From contig CAVVEU010000040.1 of the NCBI GenBank assembly GCA_963747235.1, positions 96,001 to 160,000 on the forward strand: a stretch of DNA of 64,000 bases. Direction: 5' to 3'. A program made the position numbers and the translations under genes. Origin of the DNA: an uncultured Candidatus Rokubacteria bacterium (GTDB taxonomy: Bacteria; Methylomirabilota; Methylomirabilia; Rokubacteriales; CSP1-6). Positions 3,191 through 63,330 of this stretch are shown here, piece after piece. The notes beneath the pieces are model-generated. The model did not search any database. It was given only the letters and a program-made list of their open reading frames with translations, and was not told the origin of the DNA. Within the stretch, counting starts at the first letter, position 1, and each line of letters starts with the position of its first letter.

Positions 3191-4142
3191 GCGGCTTCTT
3201 GATCACCCGGGCCAGCTCGCCCACCACGCCGCGCCGGAAGGCCAGCACGCAGAGCACGAAGATGATCCCCTGCACGACGGTCACCCAGGCCCCGAGCTGG
3301 GCCAGGTAGTTCTCGAGCGCGATCACGATGACCGCGCCGACCACGGGGCCGAACACCGTGCCGAGGCCGCCCAGCAGGGTCATGAGCACGACCTCGCCCG
3401 ACATGGTCCAGTGCACGTCGGTGAGCGAGGCGAGCTGGAAGACGATGGCCTTGGTGCCGCCGGCCAGCCCGGAGAGCCCGGCGGAGAGCACGAAGGCGAT
3501 GAGCTTGTAGCGCTCGGCCTGGTAGCCCAGCGAGAGCGCGCGCGGCTCGTTCTCCCGGATCGCCTTCAGCACCTGGCCGAACGGCGAGTGGATGGTCCGG
3601 TAGATGAGCAGGAACCCGCCCAGGAAGATCGCGAGCACGACGAAGTACATGACGAGCGTGTTGCGCAGGTCGAGGAAGCCGAGCAGCATCCCGCGCGGCA
3701 CCGCCTGGATGCCGTCCTCGCCGTGGGTGAACGGGGCCTGCAGGCAGAAGAAGTAGAGCATCTGGGCCAGCGCCAGCGTGATCATCGCGAAGTAGATGCC
3801 CTGCCGCCGGATGGCCAGCGCGCCGATCGCGAGCCCGAGCAGCGCGGCGGTCACGCGTGCCGAGCAGGATGGCCAGCTCCGGCGGCCAGCCCCACACCTT
3901 GGCCGCGTGCGCGGTGACGTAGCCGGCCGAGCCCAGGAAGACCGCGTGGCCGAAGGAGAGCAGCCCCACGTAGCCGATCAGCAGGTTGAAGGCGCACGCG
4001 AAGAGGGCGAAGCAGAGCGCCTTCATGAGGAAGACCGGGTAGACGACGAACGGGCGCCACCACGAAGGACGGCCACCATCACCGCGAAGCCACGACTGGC
4101 GGCGTCCGGGCGTGCGCGGGCACGGCTCGCCATGCCGTCCAT
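3186..4142 (-). CDS. livM: Branched-chain amino acid ABC permease (LivM-like); frameshifted
   Basis: FNLLIGYVGLLSFGHA, GIYFAMITLA, AIRENEPRALSLG, GGLGTVFGP. Confidence 0.88.
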
Positions 4143-5023
4143 CTGGCGCCCGCCCGAAGAGGCCGGCCGGCCTCACCAGCAGCACGAGGGCCATGATCAC
4201 GAAGATCACGGTGTTCGACGCCTCGGGGTAGAACACCTTGGTCAGCCCCTCGACCAGGCCCGAGCCCGAAGCCGGTGACGATCGAGCCCATGATCGAGCC
4301 CATGCCGCCGATCACGACGACCGCGAACACCACGATGATCAGGTCGGCGCCCATCAGCGGGTTGACCTGGTAGATCGGCGCGGCGAGCACGCCGGCCAGC
4401 GCGGCCAGCGCGACGCCGAAGCCGTAGGTGAGCGTGATCATGCGCGGCACGTTGATGCCGAAGGCCTGCACCAGCGCCGGGTTCTCGGTGGCCGCGCGCA
4501 GGTAGGAGCCGAGCTTGGTGCGCTCGATGACGAACCAGGTGGCCAGGCAGACGCCGAGCGAGAACACGATGACCCACGCCCGGTAGTTCGGCAGGAACAT
4601 GAAGCCGAGGTTGCGGCCGCCGGTGAGCTGGGCGGGGATGGCGTAGGGCAGGCCCGAGGAGCCGAACTCGTGGCGGAAGATGCCCTGGATGATCAGCGCC
4701 GAGGCCGAAGGTGAGGAGGAGGCCGTAGAGGTGGTCGAGGTCGTAGAGGCGCTTGAGCAGGTGCGCTCGAGCACGATGCCGACCACCCCGACCGCCACCG
4801 GCGCCAGCAGCAGGGCCCACCAGTAGCCGAGCCCCGCGTACTGCAGCAGGAAGTACGCCGCGAACGCGCCCATCATGTACTGGGCGCCGTGGGTGAAGTT
4901 GATGATGTTGAGCAGGCCGAAGATGACGGACAGCCCGAGGCTCAGCATCGCGTAGAACGAGCCGTTGATCAGCCCGATCAGGAGCTGGCCGAACAGCGCC
5001 TGCGGCGGGATCCCGAAGATCAC
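4140..5023 (-). CDS. livH: Branched-chain amino acid ABC permease (LivH-like); frameshifted
   Basis: LGLSVIFGLLNIINFTHG, RAATENPALVQAFGINV, VVVIGGMGS. Confidence 0.88.
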
Positions 5024-55930: not shown

Positions 55931-58666
55931 ATGACGTGGATACGACGCAGTAAGGGCACCGTTGCGGGCGCGATCGCCGGCCTCCTCGTGCTGTGCGGTG
56001 GCCTCACCGCGTGGGCCCAGGCTCCGAAGGCCGAGCGGCCCACCTACGCGGTCGGCGACAAGTGGATCCGCAGCGACGGCGCCTACGACCTCATCCGGAT
56101 CGAGAACGGCCGCTACGTCTTCGCGGCCGACGGCGGCCGCGAGGTCCACCTCACCCGCGACCTGGGCGTGGCCAAGATCGTCCGCGGCGGCCAGGTGCTG
56201 CTCGAGCTCGAGCCGCCGCCCGGCCTCACCTGGCCGCTCGAGATCGGCCAGTCGGGTGTGTCGTGGCTCACGCTCAAGAGCCTCGATCCGCAGTTCGGCC
56301 AGAGCGTGGTCCGCCTGACCTGGAAGGTCGACGCCTACCAGGACGTGCGCGTGCCCGCCGGCACCTTCAAGGCCTTCCGCATCGTGCAGGTGCTCGAGCC
56401 GCGCTTCCTCGCCACCTCGCCGCAGTCGCGGCGGCTCGAGCTCGCGTTCTGGTACGCGCCGGCCATCCAGCAGCTCGTGCGAGCCGACGGCAACGATCTG
56501 AGCGGGCTCGCGTTCCAGGCCGTCGCCCTCGACCGGCCCGCGGCGGCGGCGCTCGCGGTGGCGCTCGTCGATCCGAAGGACCAGGGCCGCGTGGCCACGG
56601 AGCGGATCACGCTGAACGGCAAGGTGACGGGCGGCACCGGCCCGCTCCGGATCGCGGTCACGCTCAACGGCGCCGAGATCGCGCGGCAGCAGGAGCCCGG
56701 CACGCCCGGCAAGGACGTGGCGCTGAGCGTGCCCGTGAAGCTCGCGCCGGGGCGGAACACGCTGATCGTCACCGCCACGGACGGCGCCGGCGTCAGCCGC
56801 CAGGAAGGGCGCGTGCTCTTCTACGACAAGCCCGCGCCCGCGGTGGCCGCGGCCCCGACCGCGCCAGCGGCGCCCGCGCGGCCCACGCCGCCGCCGCGAG
56901 CGCGACCCCGCCGCCCGTCGTCGCGCCGGCGCCGCCACCGGCGGCCGCCGCGCCGCCGGTCGCGCCCCGCCGCCACCGGCCGTCGCGGCGACGCCTGCGC
57001 CCAGCGCCAACGCCGACTCCGGCCCCGCCGCCCGCCGTCGCGCCGCGCCCGCGCCGGCCACGCCGGCGCCCCCGCGCCGCCACCGCCGGCGCGCGCCCGC
57101 ACCGCGCGAGCCCGAGCCGCCCGGCGACACCCGAGCCGCCGCGCGCTCCGACGCCGCCCCCCGCGGTCGAGCCTCCGCGGGCCCCGCGCCGCGCCGCCGG
57201 TCGTCGCGGCCGTGCCGCCCGAGTCGTCGGTGCGGCCGGCGAACGCGTTCCGCATCACGATCTCGACGCCCACCAACCAGGCGCGCGTGGAGCAGGAGAT
57301 GGTCACGTTCGCGGCCGTCGTGTACGGCGGCACCGGCGTGCGCCAGGTGCTCGTCACCGCCAACGGCGTGGAGCTCTGGCGCCAGGACAACCGCACGCAG
57401 CAGCCGTCCATGGCGGTGAATCTCCCGGTCAAGCTGGCGGAGGGCCAGAACACCCTGGTGGTCACCGCGGCCGAGACCGACGGCACGATGCACCAGGAGA
57501 TGCGCACCATCCACCACGAGAAGCTGATGCCGCTCGCGGTGGACGTGCGCTACCCGGAGGATCGCTCCCGCGTGACCGACGAGGCCAGCGTGGTGGCGGC
57601 GGTGGCGCGCTCCAGCAAGGGCATCAGCCGGATCACGGTGACGCTGAACGGGACCGAGGTGCATCAGCAGGAGGAGCGGAGCCCGCAGAAGACGATGGCG
57701 GTGAGCGCGCCCCTCACCCTGCGCGAGGGCGCGAACGCCATCGTGATCACCGCGCGCGAGCCCGACGGCGCGGCCCGGCAGGAGGTGCGCACCGTGATCC
57801 TGGAGCGCGTCAAGCCCGCCGTCCCGGTCGTCGTCGCGCCCCCGGCTCCGCCCGCCGCGCCGCCGTCCACCCAGTGGGCGGTCATCATCGGCGTCGGCGG
57901 GTACGAGAACTCGGCGGTGCCGCGCCTGCGCTACTCGGTGGCCGACGCCGACGCGATCTACCAGACGCTCATCAGCGCGGGCTTCAAGAAGGAGAACATC
58001 CTTCTGATGACCGACAAGACCGAGCGCAAGCCCACCCTGCGCAACATCAAGTGGGCCCTCGGCACGTTCCTCGCCCGCTCGGCCCACAAGGACGACCTGG
58101 TGATGATCTACTTCGCGGGCCACGGCGCCTCCGAGGTGGACCAGCGCGGCATCGAGCGGGACGGGCTCTCCAAGTACCTGGTCCCGGTGGACGCGGACCC
58201 GGACGATCTCTACTCGACCGCCCTGCCGATGGACGAGATGCAGAACGTGCTGGCCCGGATCGAGGCGGAGCGGGTCACCGTGTTCCTCGACGCCTGCTAC
58301 AGCGGCGCGGCGGGCGGGCGCACCTTCGCCTCCACCAAGACGCGCACCGTCAACGTGGACGACATCTTCCTCGACCGGCTCACGCGCTCCAAGGGCCGCG
58401 CGATCGTCACCGCCTCGCGACCCTCCGAGCTCTCCATCGAGCTGGCCGAGCTGGGCCACGGCATCTTCACCTACTACCTGGTGCGGGGCCTGCAGGGCTA
58501 CGCGGACATCAACCGCGACGGGATCGTGTCGCTCCAGGAGCTCTACGAGTACCTGGCCCAGGAAGTGAGCCGCAAGTCGCGCCAGGTGGGCGGCAACCAG
58601 CACCCCATGCTGAAGGGCGAGCTGGAAGGCGTGCTGCCGCTCACCCGCACCGGGAAGCGCAATTAG
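55931..58666 (+). CDS. Secreted caspase-family (peptidase C14) protein with an N-terminal VPAGTF-motif beta domain, three Ig-like repeats and a Pro-rich linker
   Basis: Signal peptide; catalytic YFAGHG and FLDACYSG; WAVIIGV; GHGIFTYYL; three GxNxxxxTAxxxDG Ig-like units. The linker probably contains compensating indels. Confidence 0.88.
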   Translation: MTWIRRSKGTVAGAIAGLLVLCGGLTAWAQAPKAERPTYAVGDKWIRSDGAYDLIRIENGRYVFAADGGREVHLTRDLGVAKIVRGGQVLLELEPPPGLTWPLEIGQSGVSWLTLKSLDPQFGQSVVRLTWKVDAYQDVRVPAGTFKAFRIVQVLEPRFLATSPQSRRLELAFWYAPAIQQLVRADGNDLSGLAFQAVALDRPAAAALAVALVDPKDQGRVATERITLNGKVTGGTGPLRIAVTLNGAEIARQQEPGTPGKDVALSVPVKLAPGRNTLIVTATDGAGVSRQEGRVLFYDKPAPAVAAAPTAPAAPARPTPPPRARPRRPSSRRRRHRRPPRRRSRPAATGRRGDACAQRQRRLRPRRPPSRRARAGHAGAPAPPPPARARTARARAARRHPSRRALRRRPPRSSLRGPRAAPPVVAAVPPESSVRPANAFRITISTPTNQARVEQEMVTFAAVVYGGTGVRQVLVTANGVELWRQDNRTQQPSMAVNLPVKLAEGQNTLVVTAAETDGTMHQEMRTIHHEKLMPLAVDVRYPEDRSRVTDEASVVAAVARSSKGISRITVTLNGTEVHQQEERSPQKTMAVSAPLTLREGANAIVITAREPDGAARQEVRTVILERVKPAVPVVVAPPAPPAAPPSTQWAVIIGVGGYENSAVPRLRYSVADADAIYQTLISAGFKKENILLMTDKTERKPTLRNIKWALGTFLARSAHKDDLVMIYFAGHGASEVDQRGIERDGLSKYLVPVDADPDDLYSTALPMDEMQNVLARIEAERVTVFLDACYSGAAGGRTFASTKTRTVNVDDIFLDRLTRSKGRAIVTASRPSELSIELAELGHGIFTYYLVRGLQGYADINRDGIVSLQELYEYLAQEVSRKSRQVGGNQHPMLKGELEGVLPLTRTGKRN

Positions 58667-60257
58667 CCGGCGCGGCTTCGCCCTGCTCGCCGCGCTCGCG
58701 CTGGCCCTGGGCGCGGCGCCGGTCGCCGCCCAGCCCGCCGCCGACGGCCAGAGCTGGGAGACGCCGATGGCCGCGGGGGATCGCGCCTACCAGCAGGGCC
58801 GCTACGCCGAGGCCGAGCGCTTCTTCGCGGCCGCGCTCGAGCGCGCCGAGCGCCTCGGGGCGCAGGACCCGCGCGTCGCCCTGAGCCTCGGCCTGCTCGC
58901 CGCGGCCTACCAGGCCGAGGGCAAGTACGCGCCCGCCGAGCCCCTCCTCCGCCGCGCGCTCGCCATCGCGGAAGGCGCGCTCGGCGCCGACCATCCGGAA
59001 GTGGCGGCCACCCTCACCGCGCTCGGCGCCCTCGGCGCCGCGCAGGGCCGCTACGCCCAGGCCGAGCCGCTGCTGCGCCGCGCGCTCGCCATCGACGAGC
59101 GCGTGCTGGGGCCGGAGCATCCCGAGGTCGCGGGCACCCTCGACGCGCTCGCCACGATCGAGCGCCTGCAGGGCCGCTACGGCGACGCCGAGATGCGGAG
59201 CCGCCGCGCGCTCGCCATCCGCGAGAAGGTGCTCGGGCCCGACCACGTGGACGTGGCGGCGAGCCTCACGACCCTGGCCGCGCTCTACCGGATCCAGAGC
59301 CGCTACGTCGAGGCCGAGCAGCTCGCCCAGCGCGCGCTCGCGATCCGCGAGAAGGCCCTCGGGCCCGAGCATCCCGAGGTGATCGGCCCGCTCGTGACGC
59401 TCGGCGAGCTTCACGCCGAGCAGGGCCGCTTCGCGCAGGCGGAGCCGCTGGGCCGCCGCGCCCTCACGATCGCCGAGAAGACGCTGGGCCCCGAGCACCC
59501 CGAGGTGGCCGGCGCGCTCGACCTGCTGGCCGGCCTGGCCCGCACCCGCGGGCGCTACGCGGACGCCGAGACGCTCGGTCGGCGCGCGCTCGCCGTCCGC
59601 GAGAAGGCCCTGGGCGCCGAGCATCCGGACGTCGCGGCGACGCTGGCCGGGCTGGCCGAGCTGTCCGCGCTGCGCCAGAACGCGACGCAGGCCGAGTCGC
59701 TGGCCCGCCGCGCCCTGGCCATCCAGGAGAAGGCGCTCGGCCCCGAGCATCCGGACCTGGCCCGGAGCCTTCGCGCGCTCGGGGAAGCCCAGCGGCTGCA
59801 GAACAAGTACGCGGAGGCCGAGCCCAGCTACCAGCGCGCGCTCGCCATCGACGAGAAGCGCCTCGGGCGCGAGTCCCCGCGTGTCGCCCTCGATCTCGGG
59901 AGCCTCGGCACGCTCTACCGCCTGCAGAGCAAGTACGCGCAGGCCGAGCCGCTCTACCGGCGCGCCCAGGCCATCGGCGAGAAGGTGCTGGGCCCCGAGC
60001 ACCCGCAGGTGGCCGCGACCATCGTGGATCTCGCCTCGCTCTACCGCGCGCAGAGCCGCTTCGCGCAGGCCGAGCCGCTCTACCAGTGGGCGCTCACGCT
60101 GCAGCGCAAGGCCCTCGGCCCCGACCACCCCGAGGTCGCGGAGAGCCTCGAGGAATACGCGGCGCTGCTCAAGCAGATCAATCGCGAGCCGGAAGCCGCC
60201 GAGATGGAAGCACAGGCGCGGGCCATCCGCGCGAAGGCGGGCGCGCCGGCGCGGTAG
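58662..60257 (+). CDS. Exported tetratricopeptide-repeat protein (eleven 42-aa kinesin-light-chain-type repeats)
   Basis: Eleven LGxxHPxVA...Y..AEPL..RAL.I repeats. An in-frame signal peptide SRRGFALLAALALALGAAPVAAQ lies upstream of the called ATG at 58767. Confidence 0.88.
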   Translation: MSRRGFALLAALALALGAAPVAAQPAADGQSWETPMAAGDRAYQQGRYAEAERFFAAALERAERLGAQDPRVALSLGLLAAAYQAEGKYAPAEPLLRRALAIAEGALGADHPEVAATLTALGALGAAQGRYAQAEPLLRRALAIDERVLGPEHPEVAGTLDALATIERLQGRYGDAEMRSRRALAIREKVLGPDHVDVAASLTTLAALYRIQSRYVEAEQLAQRALAIREKALGPEHPEVIGPLVTLGELHAEQGRFAQAEPLGRRALTIAEKTLGPEHPEVAGALDLLAGLARTRGRYADAETLGRRALAVREKALGAEHPDVAATLAGLAELSALRQNATQAESLARRALAIQEKALGPEHPDLARSLRALGEAQRLQNKYAEAEPSYQRALAIDEKRLGRESPRVALDLGSLGTLYRLQSKYAQAEPLYRRAQAIGEKVLGPEHPQVAATIVDLASLYRAQSRFAQAEPLYQWALTLQRKALGPDHPEVAESLEEYAALLKQINREPEAAEMEAQARAIRAKAGAPAR

Positions 60258-62003
60258 CCGCGCGCTAGGCGCACTCGCGGGAGCTGACGCGCAGGAGACA
60301 CAGGCGCATCACGGGCGTAACGAGTCAGGTCGTCGGTCGGGTCGCCCGCGGATGCAGCACATCGATCGCCCAGCGGACGTCCAGCCGCTCCCCGAACCAC
60401 TGGGGGAGCCCCGTGCGCGCATGAAGATTGAGCCCTTGCGCGGCGTTCTGCTGCTCGGATCGCTCCGGCTGGATCAGCAGGTACCACGGCCGGCGCCGGG
60501 ACGTCGGGCAGCGGCCGGCCATCCGGCCGTCGGAACTGGAGAGCGCCGTCGGGTAGTCGCTCGACCTGGTAGCCCTCCTCGTGCACCGCGCGGTGATGCC
60601 GGCGGCAGAGTAACGCGAGGTTCGAGAGCTTCGTCGGGCCGCCGTGAGCCCAGTGCCGCACGTGATGTCCCTCGGCGATCCGGACGTTGCAGCCCGGGAA
60701 GCGGCAGGTCTTGTCCCGATGCTGCAGCGCCCGTCGGAGCGCCGGCGGGAATCGTCCGCGTCCGGGCGCCCGACCTCGACCACCCGCCCGTCCTGGTCGT
60801 GCCGCATCACCACCCGGCTCGCGTCGCACGCCAGCCGCTGCGACGTTCCCGCGGGAACGTGCGCGCCGTCCTCCAGCACCGACTGCCCGGGCTGGGCCGC
60901 GTTCGCCAGGACCGCGGCGTCCACGTGGACCACCACCTGATAGCGCTCCCCTGGGGCTCCGGATCGAGCTCGTGATGCAGCGCGGTCTCCGCCAGCAGGC
61001 CAACGCGTCCGCCTGCTGCTGCGGCCGGGTCGGGGTCTCGGCCGCTGGGTCGGCGGCGGAGACGGCCTCGTCGGCACGGCGCCGCTGGTAGAGCGTCTCG
61101 CGGGCCGCGTCGAGGGCCCGCAGGAGCAGCGCACCGACCTCCGGGGTCAGGCGCCCGCGGAGCACCACGGTGCCGTCCTCATCCTGGTGGACATGCAGGG
61201 CTCGGCCCGCGTGCTGGCGGACGCCTTCTCGGGCTTCGGCCTGCTGATCCAGCCGGCGCCAGCCCCGCACGATGCTCTCCACGTGGACCGCCGTGCCCGC
61301 GCGCCCGACCGCGAGCAGGCGCGCCTCCGTCTCCGGGGTCGCGATCCGCGTCAAGGCGCGGACCTTCGCGTAGGAGAGCTCGCCGCGCGCCATCGCCTCG
61401 GCCAAGGCCGGCAACGTCCCGAGGGCACGCGCCACCCGGACGTGCTCCCGGGCAGCGCCGGGGGCGAGGCCGACGCGCCAGGCGAGCCACTCCGCGCAGG
61501 AGCGGAAGCCGTTGGCCCAACCTTCGCGCGCATCGAACTCCCGGATCAGCGCGAGAAGCCGGGCCGTCGCCGCCTCGAGATGCGCCGAGAGCTCGGCGAT
61601 CTGATCACCCAGGCGATCCAGCTCCGCGAGGTGCGGGGGGTTGGGTTGCGACGGTTGCAACGGAGCGGGAAGGTCCGGCGGGCGTGGGACCATGATGAGT
61701 CTCCTTTCTGTTACGAAGACTCTAAACCCTGCTTCCTCGAGCGCCTGGGACCGCCCACGTTGCGCGAACTCGAGAGCGCAGCGATGATCGATCGTCTCCC
61801 GCATCGCGGCCGTGCATCAGGCGTCGGAGGCGCGCCGCACGATCGGGATTCCCCACGCGCACTGGACACGCGACGAGGCCGTCGAAAGATGCCGTCAAGC
61901 GGAAAATGCGAGACGATCCCGCGTGCTGGCGAACGAAGCTGTGGGGATACCACTCAGCGAATGCGGCTCAGCGAATACGCCTACGGGTGCCCACCGCGCG
62001 CTA
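60258..62003 (-). mobile_element. Putative ~1.74-kb DUF222-HNH insertion element
   Basis: Direct repeat CCGCGCGCTA at 60258-60267 and 61994-62003; imperfect inverted repeats (11/13) at 60266-60278 and 61971-61983; lies exactly between two convergent stop codons. Confidence 0.55.
60325..61693 (-). CDS. DUF222 (13E12-repeat family) HNH endonuclease; frameshifted
   Basis: FDAREGW...SCAEWLAW, GELSYAKVRALTR, QRLACDA, and HNH RDKTCRFPGC...HHVRHWAHGGPTKLSNLALLCRRHHRAVH; RBS AGAAAGGAG. Confidence 0.9.
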
Positions 62004-63330
62004 CCGGATCTTCCCCGCCGCGGCCTCCGCAAGCTCGCGGGCCCGCGCGTAGCCGGCCTTCGCCGCGGTGTCCCACTCCGTCTCCATCCGCGACTTCACC
62101 TCGGGCTTGTCCTTGAACGCCGCGTTGACCTCGCGGTCGGAGGCCGCGCCGGGCGTCGAGCGGCACCGTGCTCGCGAGCTTGCGGGCCTCCGCGAGCTGG
62201 GCAGCCGCGGCCTCCACGTTGCGGCCGCCCGCCCGCGCCTTCGTCACCTGCGCGTCGGCCGCGTGGATCGCGCCCCAGGCCGCCTTGAGCTCGGCGTGGC
62301 GGAAGGTCACCACCTGGTCGAAGAGCGCGTTGACCACGTTGCGGCGGCCGGAGGAGAGCTTGTCGTCGAAGTCCACCCCGCCCAGCTTCATCGTGAACGG
62401 GTTGGGATAGCCCTTGGGCGCGCGCGCGTAGAGGCCGGGCACCACCGGCAGCCGGCCGATCTCGGGCGCGAAGAGCCGGAGCTGCCCCTCGTCGCCCAGC
62501 AGGTAGTCGACGAAGGCGCGGGCATTGGCCGGGTTCGGCCCGTTCTTCACCACCGCCACCGAGGCCGGCACCACCGAGGTGAGCGACGGATACGCGAAGT
62601 CGATCGGCTGACCCGACGCGATGGCGGAGAGCCCGAAGAAGTCGATCACCACGCCGATGCCGTACTGGCCCGAGACGACCGCCTCCGGCACCCCGAAGCT
62701 GCGCTCGGTGATCGAGCCCATGTTGCCGCCGGTCTGCAGCAGCAGCGCCCAGCCCTTCTCCCAGCCGTAGGCCTGCAGGATCACCTCGACGGTGAGATGC
62801 GTCGTGCCGCTGCGCGAGGGCGCCGAGATCACGAGGTGGCCCCAGTAGCGCGCATCGGCCAGGTCCGTCCACTCGCGCGGAGCGGGCAGCTTGTGGAGCG
62901 CCAGGTAGCGCGTGTTCCACATGAGGCCGTAGCCCGAGACCGCGAAGCCCCAGTAGTAGCCGTCCGGATCGTGGAGCGGGAAGCTGCCGATCCTCGCGGG
63001 GATCCGCGCCAGCGTCTCCTTCGGCAGCGCGACCTTCTCGAGCAGGCCGTCGGCCTTCAGGGTCTGGAAGGCGTCCACCGCCGAGACCCAGAAGATGTCG
63101 GCCTCCGGCCGGCTCCGCGTCTCGCGCAGGTAGGTGACGCCCTGGTTGGTCTGCTGCTGCTTCACGATCACCTTCACCCCCGGCGTCTTCTGCTCGAAGG
63201 CCTGCTTGTAGGCCTCGAAGAGCTCCTTGGGGAACGAGGTGAGCACCACGACTTCCTTCGTCGCGGGCTGGGCGGACGCGGACACGACACCCGCAAGGAG
63301 CGCGAGGGCGGCGAGGGCGACGCGGAGCAT
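62001..63330 (-). CDS. Periplasmic ABC-type solute-binding protein, PgtC-like; frameshift near the C-terminus
   Basis: Signal peptide; SGYGLMWN, LPAPREWTDL, SAPSRSGTTHLTVE, GWEKGW and RSFGV resemble the PgtC/AfuA-type family as I recall it (no search run). Confidence 0.8.

Follow-up and report, generated by a model that had tools for sequence, protein, structure and literature searches.

The closest described counterparts of the gene considered here are the REP13E12 (or 13E12) repeats of Mycobacterium tuberculosis, whose proteins carry the Pfam domain DUF222, in many cases together with HNH. According to the excerpts available of three reports, REP13E12 regions are gene-conversion hotspots that "lack defined biological function" (PMC13061034), REP13E12, HNH endonuclease and DUF222 figure among the repetitive elements returned by a mobile-element detector (PMC10589994), and DUF222 is a domain fused to some HNH enzymes (PMC3592412). 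In the literature searched, partly accessible as excerpts and with subscription journals outside its scope, neither a mobility mechanism nor an established function is given for REP13E12 or DUF222-HNH genes. A gene of this type is found in a 64-kb stretch of DNA (the window, to which all positions refer) from a soil bacterium of the Rokubacteria/Methylomirabilota. It shares with the mycobacterial repeats both Pfam domains, a dispersed multicopy arrangement (6 copies here), a unit of ~1.5 kb and the lack of a transposase. Unlike them, it resides in a host that is not an actinobacterium, and a pair of filled and empty sites here defines the inserted unit as the gene, its leader and copy-specific ends. 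A prophage attachment site has been described for the mycobacterial repeats. The window copy adds a member, from a new phylum, to the known DUF222-HNH/REP13E12 kind.

Free-standing homing endonuclease genes, which encode HNH or GIY-YIG nucleases and sit between conserved phage genes (e.g. T4 mob and seg), resemble the window copy in being lone intergenic nuclease genes with their own expression signals, present or absent in collinear relatives, with neither inverted ends nor a transposase. By contrast, homing genes leave no target duplication and occupy one allelic site, whereas the gene described here has many paralogs at many chromosomal sites of a bacterial host. Insertion sequences provide another point of comparison: like them, the window copy is a discrete multicopy insertion of 1.6–1.7 kb with a short direct repeat at its site, but it lacks a transposase domain, conserved or inverted ends and a duplication of fixed length, and its copies are only 75–92% identical.

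In the window, an open reading frame (ORF) with TPR repeats (58767–60257, plus strand; Pfam TPR_12, E = 2.2e-123; orthologues in relatives 81–93% identical) ends in the stop codon TAG at 60255–60257, and a solute-binding-protein (SBP) gene (62001–63330, minus strand; Pfam SBP_bac_6, E = 6e-27) converges on it, its frame ending in ...AAGKIR*. The DUF222-HNH segment between these two convergent stops is, as comparison with related genomes shows, a discrete, lineage-specific insertion. The reading we favour, at somewhat less than an even chance, is that a free-standing DUF222-HNH (REP13E12-type) gene cassette was placed here, at 60262–61998 within register ambiguity, by illegitimate, transposase-independent break repair. 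Below, G, C and L labels denote genomes, contigs and fetched loci, respectively; G000 is the source genome, and the window copy is the C40 copy.

The insertion is supported by the junction in relatives. A 4.7-kb region was searched against 40 related genomes, 20 of them from the same genus. In G013 and G014 the flanks abut, with query positions 1–1562 and 3300–4700 overlapping by 3 nt at 91–93% identity. In line with the original prediction, the TPR/SBP junction is empty in 13 of the 20 same-genus genomes (G002, G006, G007, G008, G009, G010, G011, G013, G014, G015, G016, G017, and G019), where both gene ends lie on one contig ~3–105 nt apart with no DUF222 gene between them; in the other 7 both ends were not found together. 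A further 160 loci were fetched from public genomes and metagenomes by means of the SBP protein, of which 48 match the SBP 3' end at an identity of 84% or more. None of the 48 matches either of two DUF222 probes, and 35 also hold the TPR end and are empty. The stop-to-stop spacer at these 35 loci is 3 nt in 13, 4–22 nt in 6, 58–107 nt in 8 and ~1 kb in one, and in the remaining 7 the stops overlap.

Because close and distant relatives are both empty, the gene was gained in this lineage. The converse, that it is ancestral here and was deleted in relatives across its short direct repeats, invokes a common process that leaves one repeat copy behind, yet it is scarcely credible: the closest relatives (G013 and G014, with flanks of 92–93% identity) and the distant ones (81–89%) are empty, as are all 48 further loci, and the single 10-nt repeat expected after such a deletion is present in no empty site.

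In some other lineages this junction is occupied by different DNA (L022/L106, L021/L107, L187, L191–L195, and L186). Several genomes and contigs have 58–107 nt there, the ~1 kb in L186 terminates in what resembles another gene's 3' end, and the shorter inserts retain remnants of an L186-type end. DNA has been gained and lost repeatedly at the TPR/SBP junction.

Both filled junctions are spanned by contigs of soil sequencing runs, one of which may be the source sample, so that they are not fully independent: a contig of run X1 covers 59712–60371 (8 mismatches), another of X1 covers 61601–62078, and a contig of X3 covers 61654–62303. The filled allele is present in other soil runs at ~99% identity, and no contig joint skipping the insert, i.e. 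no empty allele, occurs in runs X1–X4 among the 15 joints listed of 26. One X2 contig matches 59960–60263 and then continues for 35 nt unlike the window. On the empty allele in these runs, neither observation carries weight either way. The filled junctions are not an assembly artefact.

At the limits of the insertion, the 10-mer CCGCGCGCTA stands directly after the TPR stop (60258–60267) and again at 61994–62003, where its last bases, CTA at 62001–62003, are the SBP stop. These coordinates, given in the original prediction, are confirmed; 1,726 bp lie between the copies, and 1,736 bp separate their starts. Random junction pairs 1,736 nt apart in the same genome, with ±3 nt of slack, show an exact repeat of at least 10 nt with a frequency of 3.1e-4, and one of at least 6 nt in 3% of cases. 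The repeat is thus more than chance, and its rarity ties it to the insertion. A longer, decayed duplication was sought by comparing the insert ends with either flank, and no similarity was found (P = 0.10–0.96).

How much of this repeat comes from the target can be read from the empty sites. Removing one copy together with the interval does leave, as proposed, convergent stops 7 nt apart (TAG-CCGCGCG-CTA), and the claim holds on paper, but no natural empty site seen has that 7-nt spacer. The G014-type site reads TAG-CCG-CTA-GCGG, and the junctions of G013 and G014 read TAG/TGA-CCG-CTA; in L188, L198, and L214, the contigs most like the window downstream, it reads TAG-GCG-CTA-GCGG. The part of the repeat that is demonstrably target-derived is therefore only CCGC (against the G014 type) or GCGCTA (against the L188 type), i.e. 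4–6 nt. A repeat made partly of target bases and partly of bases with no counterpart in empty sites is what an imperfect shared core could give if a circular cassette had been integrated by recombination at a short CCGCGCGCTA-like core, with the recombinase encoded elsewhere (as for an integron cassette or small integrative element); a crossover inside the core would leave it on both sides. No core-like sequence recurs at the junctions of other copies, no conserved recombination site is seen at the cassette ends, and the lengths of these ends vary, so we regard such integration as quite improbable.

The original prediction went further and took the segment for an autonomous, HNH-driven insertion element with terminal inverted repeats and a 10-bp target duplication, directed to palindromic convergent junctions. 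Several observations agree with this: the limits of the insertion coincide exactly with the 10-nt repeat, no transposase is found in the insert, four of eight readable sites are convergent and none divergent, and empty sites bear a short palindrome (CCGCTAGCGG or CGCTAGCG). The proposed inverted ends, 60266–60278 and 61971–61983, do match in reverse complement at 11 of 13 positions. However, a match of this quality somewhere in two 40-nt ends arises in 3.8% of random pairs, and the arms are asymmetric, the left one overlapping the direct repeat and the right one sitting 10 nt inside it (0 vs 10 nt). The best 13-nt inverted matches in the window, C29 and C24 inserts are 10/13, 8/13, and 9/13, respectively, with dissimilar termini, and the arms have no counterpart in the other two inserts. 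We judge the inverted match to be chance.

The hairpin on which the palindromic target was based exists only in the hypothetical excised sequence, and natural empty junctions (L020 and L019) fold no better than shuffled sequences (z = −0.52 and +0.99). A palindromic convergent junction is not the rule either, since the flanking genes are convergent at C40, L082, L090, and L098 and tandem at C29, C24, L080, and L081. A preference for TAG stops at insertion sites was considered and found unconvincing (7 of 12 flanking stops, compared with 34% in the genome, 803 of 2,380 ORFs; P ~ 0.08), and a shared target word, GGCGCGGTAGG, present at two unrelated sites, is possibly chance.

G000 holds six DUF222-HNH copies; the five paralogs are 82–87% identical to the window copy, and the closest pair, C29 and C24, reaches 92%. 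Copies within four other genomes (7, 6, 4, and 3 copies; 20 compared) are 75–90% identical, and no pair attains 95%. The copies are old, unlike the near-identical ones made by an active insertion sequence. Homology between copies stops at ~60331–60337, the coding end, and at 61808–61831, with the best relatives reaching 61912; private to the window copy are ~65 nt at the left end and ~85–94 nt at the right.

Direct repeats vary as well. The C24 copy, between a stop and the ribosome-binding site of the next gene, has only CGGG (4 nt) on both sides. The C29 copy has no direct repeat: it lacks 5 nt of the empty site, has taken the place of the final codons of the gene upstream, and lies just before a promoter-like TTGACT...TATAAC. 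Duplications of 10 (C40), 4 (C24), and 0 nt (C29) leave no fixed length. No clean empty site was found in relatives for the C8 and C23 copies, where the relatives hold other DNA.

Copies without conserved termini or duplications had been named in advance as what would speak against the insertion-element model. With chance-level inverted ends, private termini, and duplications of 4 and 0 nt at the only other resolvable copies, and with no near-identical copies within genomes, this model is largely refuted on its own terms, and we consider it decidedly improbable. Judging by the same comparisons, the cassette is unlike a transposon with defined ends in its behaviour.

The gene might instead be a passenger of another, decayed mobile element (e.g. 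a defective insertion sequence) that supplied the ends and the duplication. The terminal segments 60268–60325 and 61900–61993 have no second copy in their own genome, and a search for a donor of the right end (61906–61998) in 183 genomes of the order returned only itself besides matches of 19–26 nt (E ~ 0.007). With no significant inverted repeats and no transposase remnant in the insert, such a passenger origin is very improbable.

In the insert, next to the left repeat copy, lies a copy-specific 3' untranslated segment downstream of the nuclease stop (60268–60325, minus strand), which is unlike that of other copies, has no terminator-like site, and folds no better than shuffled sequences (z = 0.18). 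The nuclease gene follows at 60326–61693 on the minus strand, as delimited by three-frame reading, paralog alignment and Pfam; its family-typical ending ...WFGERLDVRWAIDVLHPRA... precedes the true stop (TCA, 60326–60328), and its start codon, 61693–61691, is preceded by AAGGAGA, with 300 nt upstream of the start lying inside the insert. Then come the family-conserved leader (61694–61899, minus strand) and a copy-specific upstream segment (61900–61993), which is unlike both flanks and has no homologue but itself in the 183 genomes of the order. Besides the DUF222-HNH gene, no ORF of the insert is conserved, and Pfam returns only DUF222 and HNH there, and no transposase. The original prediction was right that the only cargo is one DUF222-HNH gene with its own upstream region and that no transposase is encoded, but the ORF it used began further upstream than the start at 61693.

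From a CTTGAC(A/G) box (61899–61894 in the window) through the ATG the leader measures 206–212 nt in 26 of 27 copies, most of the intervening sequence being variable; the search pattern allowed ~170–300 nt, so that the narrow range was not imposed. Conserved within it are the boxes AATCA, TCGCG, and GG(T)GTAGAGTC, a TAGAGTC box, and an inverted repeat (GAGTC/GACTC) that surrounds the ribosome-binding site. How far the insert extends past the CTTGAC box varies, with ~94 nt in C40, ~12 in C29, ~91 in C24, roughly 15 in L090, and 27 in L098. The family-conserved unit is the coding sequence plus a leader of ~210 nt starting at the CTTGAC box, and each copy has its own unrelated stretches at both ends, of about 15–105 nt on the upstream side.

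A conserved region of ~210 nt upstream of an HNH gene recalls IscB (IS200/IS605-type; HNH plus RuvC, with an upstream omega RNA). Pfam finds no RuvC domain in the window protein, and the leader of the gene shows no conserved structure: RNAalifold of 26 leaders gave 5 pairs at −1.29 kcal/mol with 1 compensatory pair and no consensus structure, and Rfam gave no family above threshold, its only row being a microRNA model that scores 22.7 bits where 78 are required. A promoter scan found no canonical promoter-like site and one terminator-like site, on the wrong strand and over the start codon.

The protein carries DUF222 (PF02720) on 60998–61693 of the minus strand (50.3 bits, E = 2.7e-13, cut-off 24.4; 95.9 bits in the intact relative P0002) and HNH (PF01844) on 60485–60787 (34.6 bits, E = 2.1e-8). 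The HNH catalytic and zinc-finger core, CRFPGC...HH...N...CRRHH...H, lies at 60578–60706 on the minus strand (PF01844 on residues 367–409 of P0001). Eight residues (C283, C328, H336, H337, N351, C356, H360, and H364) are invariant in 49 homologues, and the motif is present in the window copy. An AlphaFold2 model of P0002 (mean pLDDT 87.6) begins with a long helical part and ends in an HNH domain, and fold comparison matches the latter to IscB (Z = 7.0, root-mean-square deviation 2.1 Å over 65 residues; also Z = 6.2), McrA (Z = 6.8), and TagI (Z = 6.7). The IscB matches, from a whole-chain search that is weak for a model of 443 residues, cover only the HNH core, model residues 310–379, and the resemblance to IscB is limited to the generic HNH fold. 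Residues 28–141 of P0002 match the Spo0J/ParB DNA-binding domain at Z = 5.1–5.2 (2.6 Å over 91–96 residues); such Z scores lie in the range of common arrangements, and the ParB likeness of the modelled DUF222 part can be taken as a hint only. Foldseek found no match in PDB at E ≤ 0.001, and a sequence profile matched only HNH cores there (E = 0.002–0.007).

The family is large, with 30,004 cluster representatives at E ≤ 0.001 and >8,000 close homologues; nearly all of the 120 homologues listed combine PF02720 with PF01844. Within the order, PF02720 occurs in 120 of 183 genomes at 1–12 matches each, a tally that includes the unpublished genomes G048, G164, and G165.

Presence or absence of the cassette at the same intergenic position varies among collinear relatives at the sites of the C40, C29, and C24 copies and at six others that are occupied in relatives but not in G000. 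Variation of this kind among close relatives, together with an architecture of HNH plus DNA-binding domain, is what would be expected if the nuclease cuts the unoccupied allele of a related cell, into which homologous repair then copies the gene from a transferred filled allele. The C29 insertion, common to G000 and G013 at 90% identity and missing from other species, and the ~99% identical filled alleles of other soil runs also agree with such homing-type spread, for which the original ectopic insertion would have taken place elsewhere and the 10-nt repeat would have arisen as a side effect of that first event or by (CG)n slippage. However, homing accounts for spread within a locus only, leaving the duplication and the occupation of at least six different loci per genome unexplained, and each of >20 paralogs, 75–92% alike, would need its own site. 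No co-conversion tract was noticed either, though no search was aimed at one. We consider it an unlikely account of this insertion, but one deserving serious weight.

According to the break-repair reading that we favour, the cassette would have gone into the few bases between the convergent TPR and SBP stops in this lineage only. A double-strand break at the junction, either staggered or resected, would have undergone fill-in and been joined to a DNA fragment that carried the cassette, with duplications of as much as 10 nt at this site and of 4 nt or none elsewhere as the outcome. The cassette's own protein, with a helical, weakly ParB-like and putatively DNA-binding DUF222 part joined to an HNH nuclease, would be the obvious candidate for making the break. 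Ku and LigD_N adjoin on contig C33 of G000, so that end joining would be available to the host, and homing-type copying between alleles may add to the spread. Who cuts and how the fragment is joined are steps that we infer. Taken together, the results speak against a mechanism like that of insertion sequences and favour break repair or homing-type spread.

Several points weigh against break repair. A clean 10-nt fill-in needs the 7-nt spacer CCGCGCG, which is in no empty site seen; either an extra 4-nt lineage change of (CG)n type before the insertion must be assumed, or a part of the repeat brought with the insert. The constant leader length amounts to a sharp upstream boundary, i.e. to more order than random fragment capture predicts. 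No source was pinned for the incoming fragment, the nearest paralog being only 87% identical. At six sites filled in relatives and not in G000 the whole spacer differs, and the junctions are unresolvable to the nucleotide. Cutting of this or any chromosomal site by the HNH protein is likewise something we infer, and its frame breaks mean that the window copy might be dead.

These breaks are five single-base ones in the nuclease gene, near 60450, 60746, 60769, 60960, and 60997, and the SBP gene has one near 62142, where near-identical contigs of runs X3 and X4 are one base shorter. At all six places contigs of other sequencing runs have a frame-restoring indel, and contigs with only 2 mismatches over their length also show single-base differences at 61772 and 61785. 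Scattered single-base indels occur in all six G000 copies; none of four paralogs scanned has a complete reading frame, and a copy in G013, like G000 a genome of very long contigs, likewise carries indels. Intact copies are found in fragmented, short-contig genomes (e.g. the 443-residue ORF of L098). Because other runs restore the frames and short-contig genomes hold intact copies, we think that most of the frame breaks are probably assembly errors.

Other features of G000 and its relatives touch on the cassette sites. A REP-like palindrome (CCCTCTCCCC, 2–10 nt, GGGGAGAGGG, with longer arms) has 167–176 occurrences in G000, for example, outside the window, at C29:144445–144508, C40:77957–78031, and C40:361606–361693. 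It lies at or beside 3–4 of the 6 G000 slots that hold a DUF222-HNH cassette in relatives, in two of them as the alternative occupant between the same convergent stops, and none lies within 1.5 kb of the six copies of G000 itself. At the L082 site (G013:C7), with an insert of 2,031 nt, ~480 nt at positions ~2499–2976, flanked by a REP-like palindrome and the CTTGAC box of the cassette, may include a small additional ORF. G000:C37:6708–15120 repeats G000:C8:439119–445108, and both are ~90% identical to the same G013 locus; the C37 region carries a degraded DUF222-HNH copy where C8 has 183 nt of other sequence, and the repeat could reflect a second strain in the bin or a duplication. At G000:C11:9612–12417, a different 2.8 kb stands where five relatives (L084, L088, L091, L092, and L093) hold the cassette, whose flanks there match C11 at about 9610 and 12418.

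In the window, the gene upstream of the TPR gene (55931–58666) encodes Ig-like domains followed by a caspase-like Peptidase_C14 domain (E = 3.7e-22), and its G+C content reaches 0.81–0.89 at 56650–57250. That a caspase-domain gene adjoins a TPR gene is a pairing of interest.

The locus offers an unusually clean pair of states before and after insertion: because just 3 nt separate the two flanking stops in relatives, the insert can be read in its entirety, as gene, conserved leader of 206 nt and copy-specific ends, and the empty junction is a concrete, defined substrate for a nuclease assay. A bolder view, rather unlikely at present, is that these genes form a transposase-free mobile class in which the gene's own HNH nuclease, directed by sequence or structure, opens intergenic DNA just past stop codons, often at small palindromic repeats, and host end joining and fill-in install the gene with its leader, giving target duplications of variable length (0–10 nt here). 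If true, this would explain the spread of one of the largest uncharacterised nuclease families and the existence of REP13E12 repeats.

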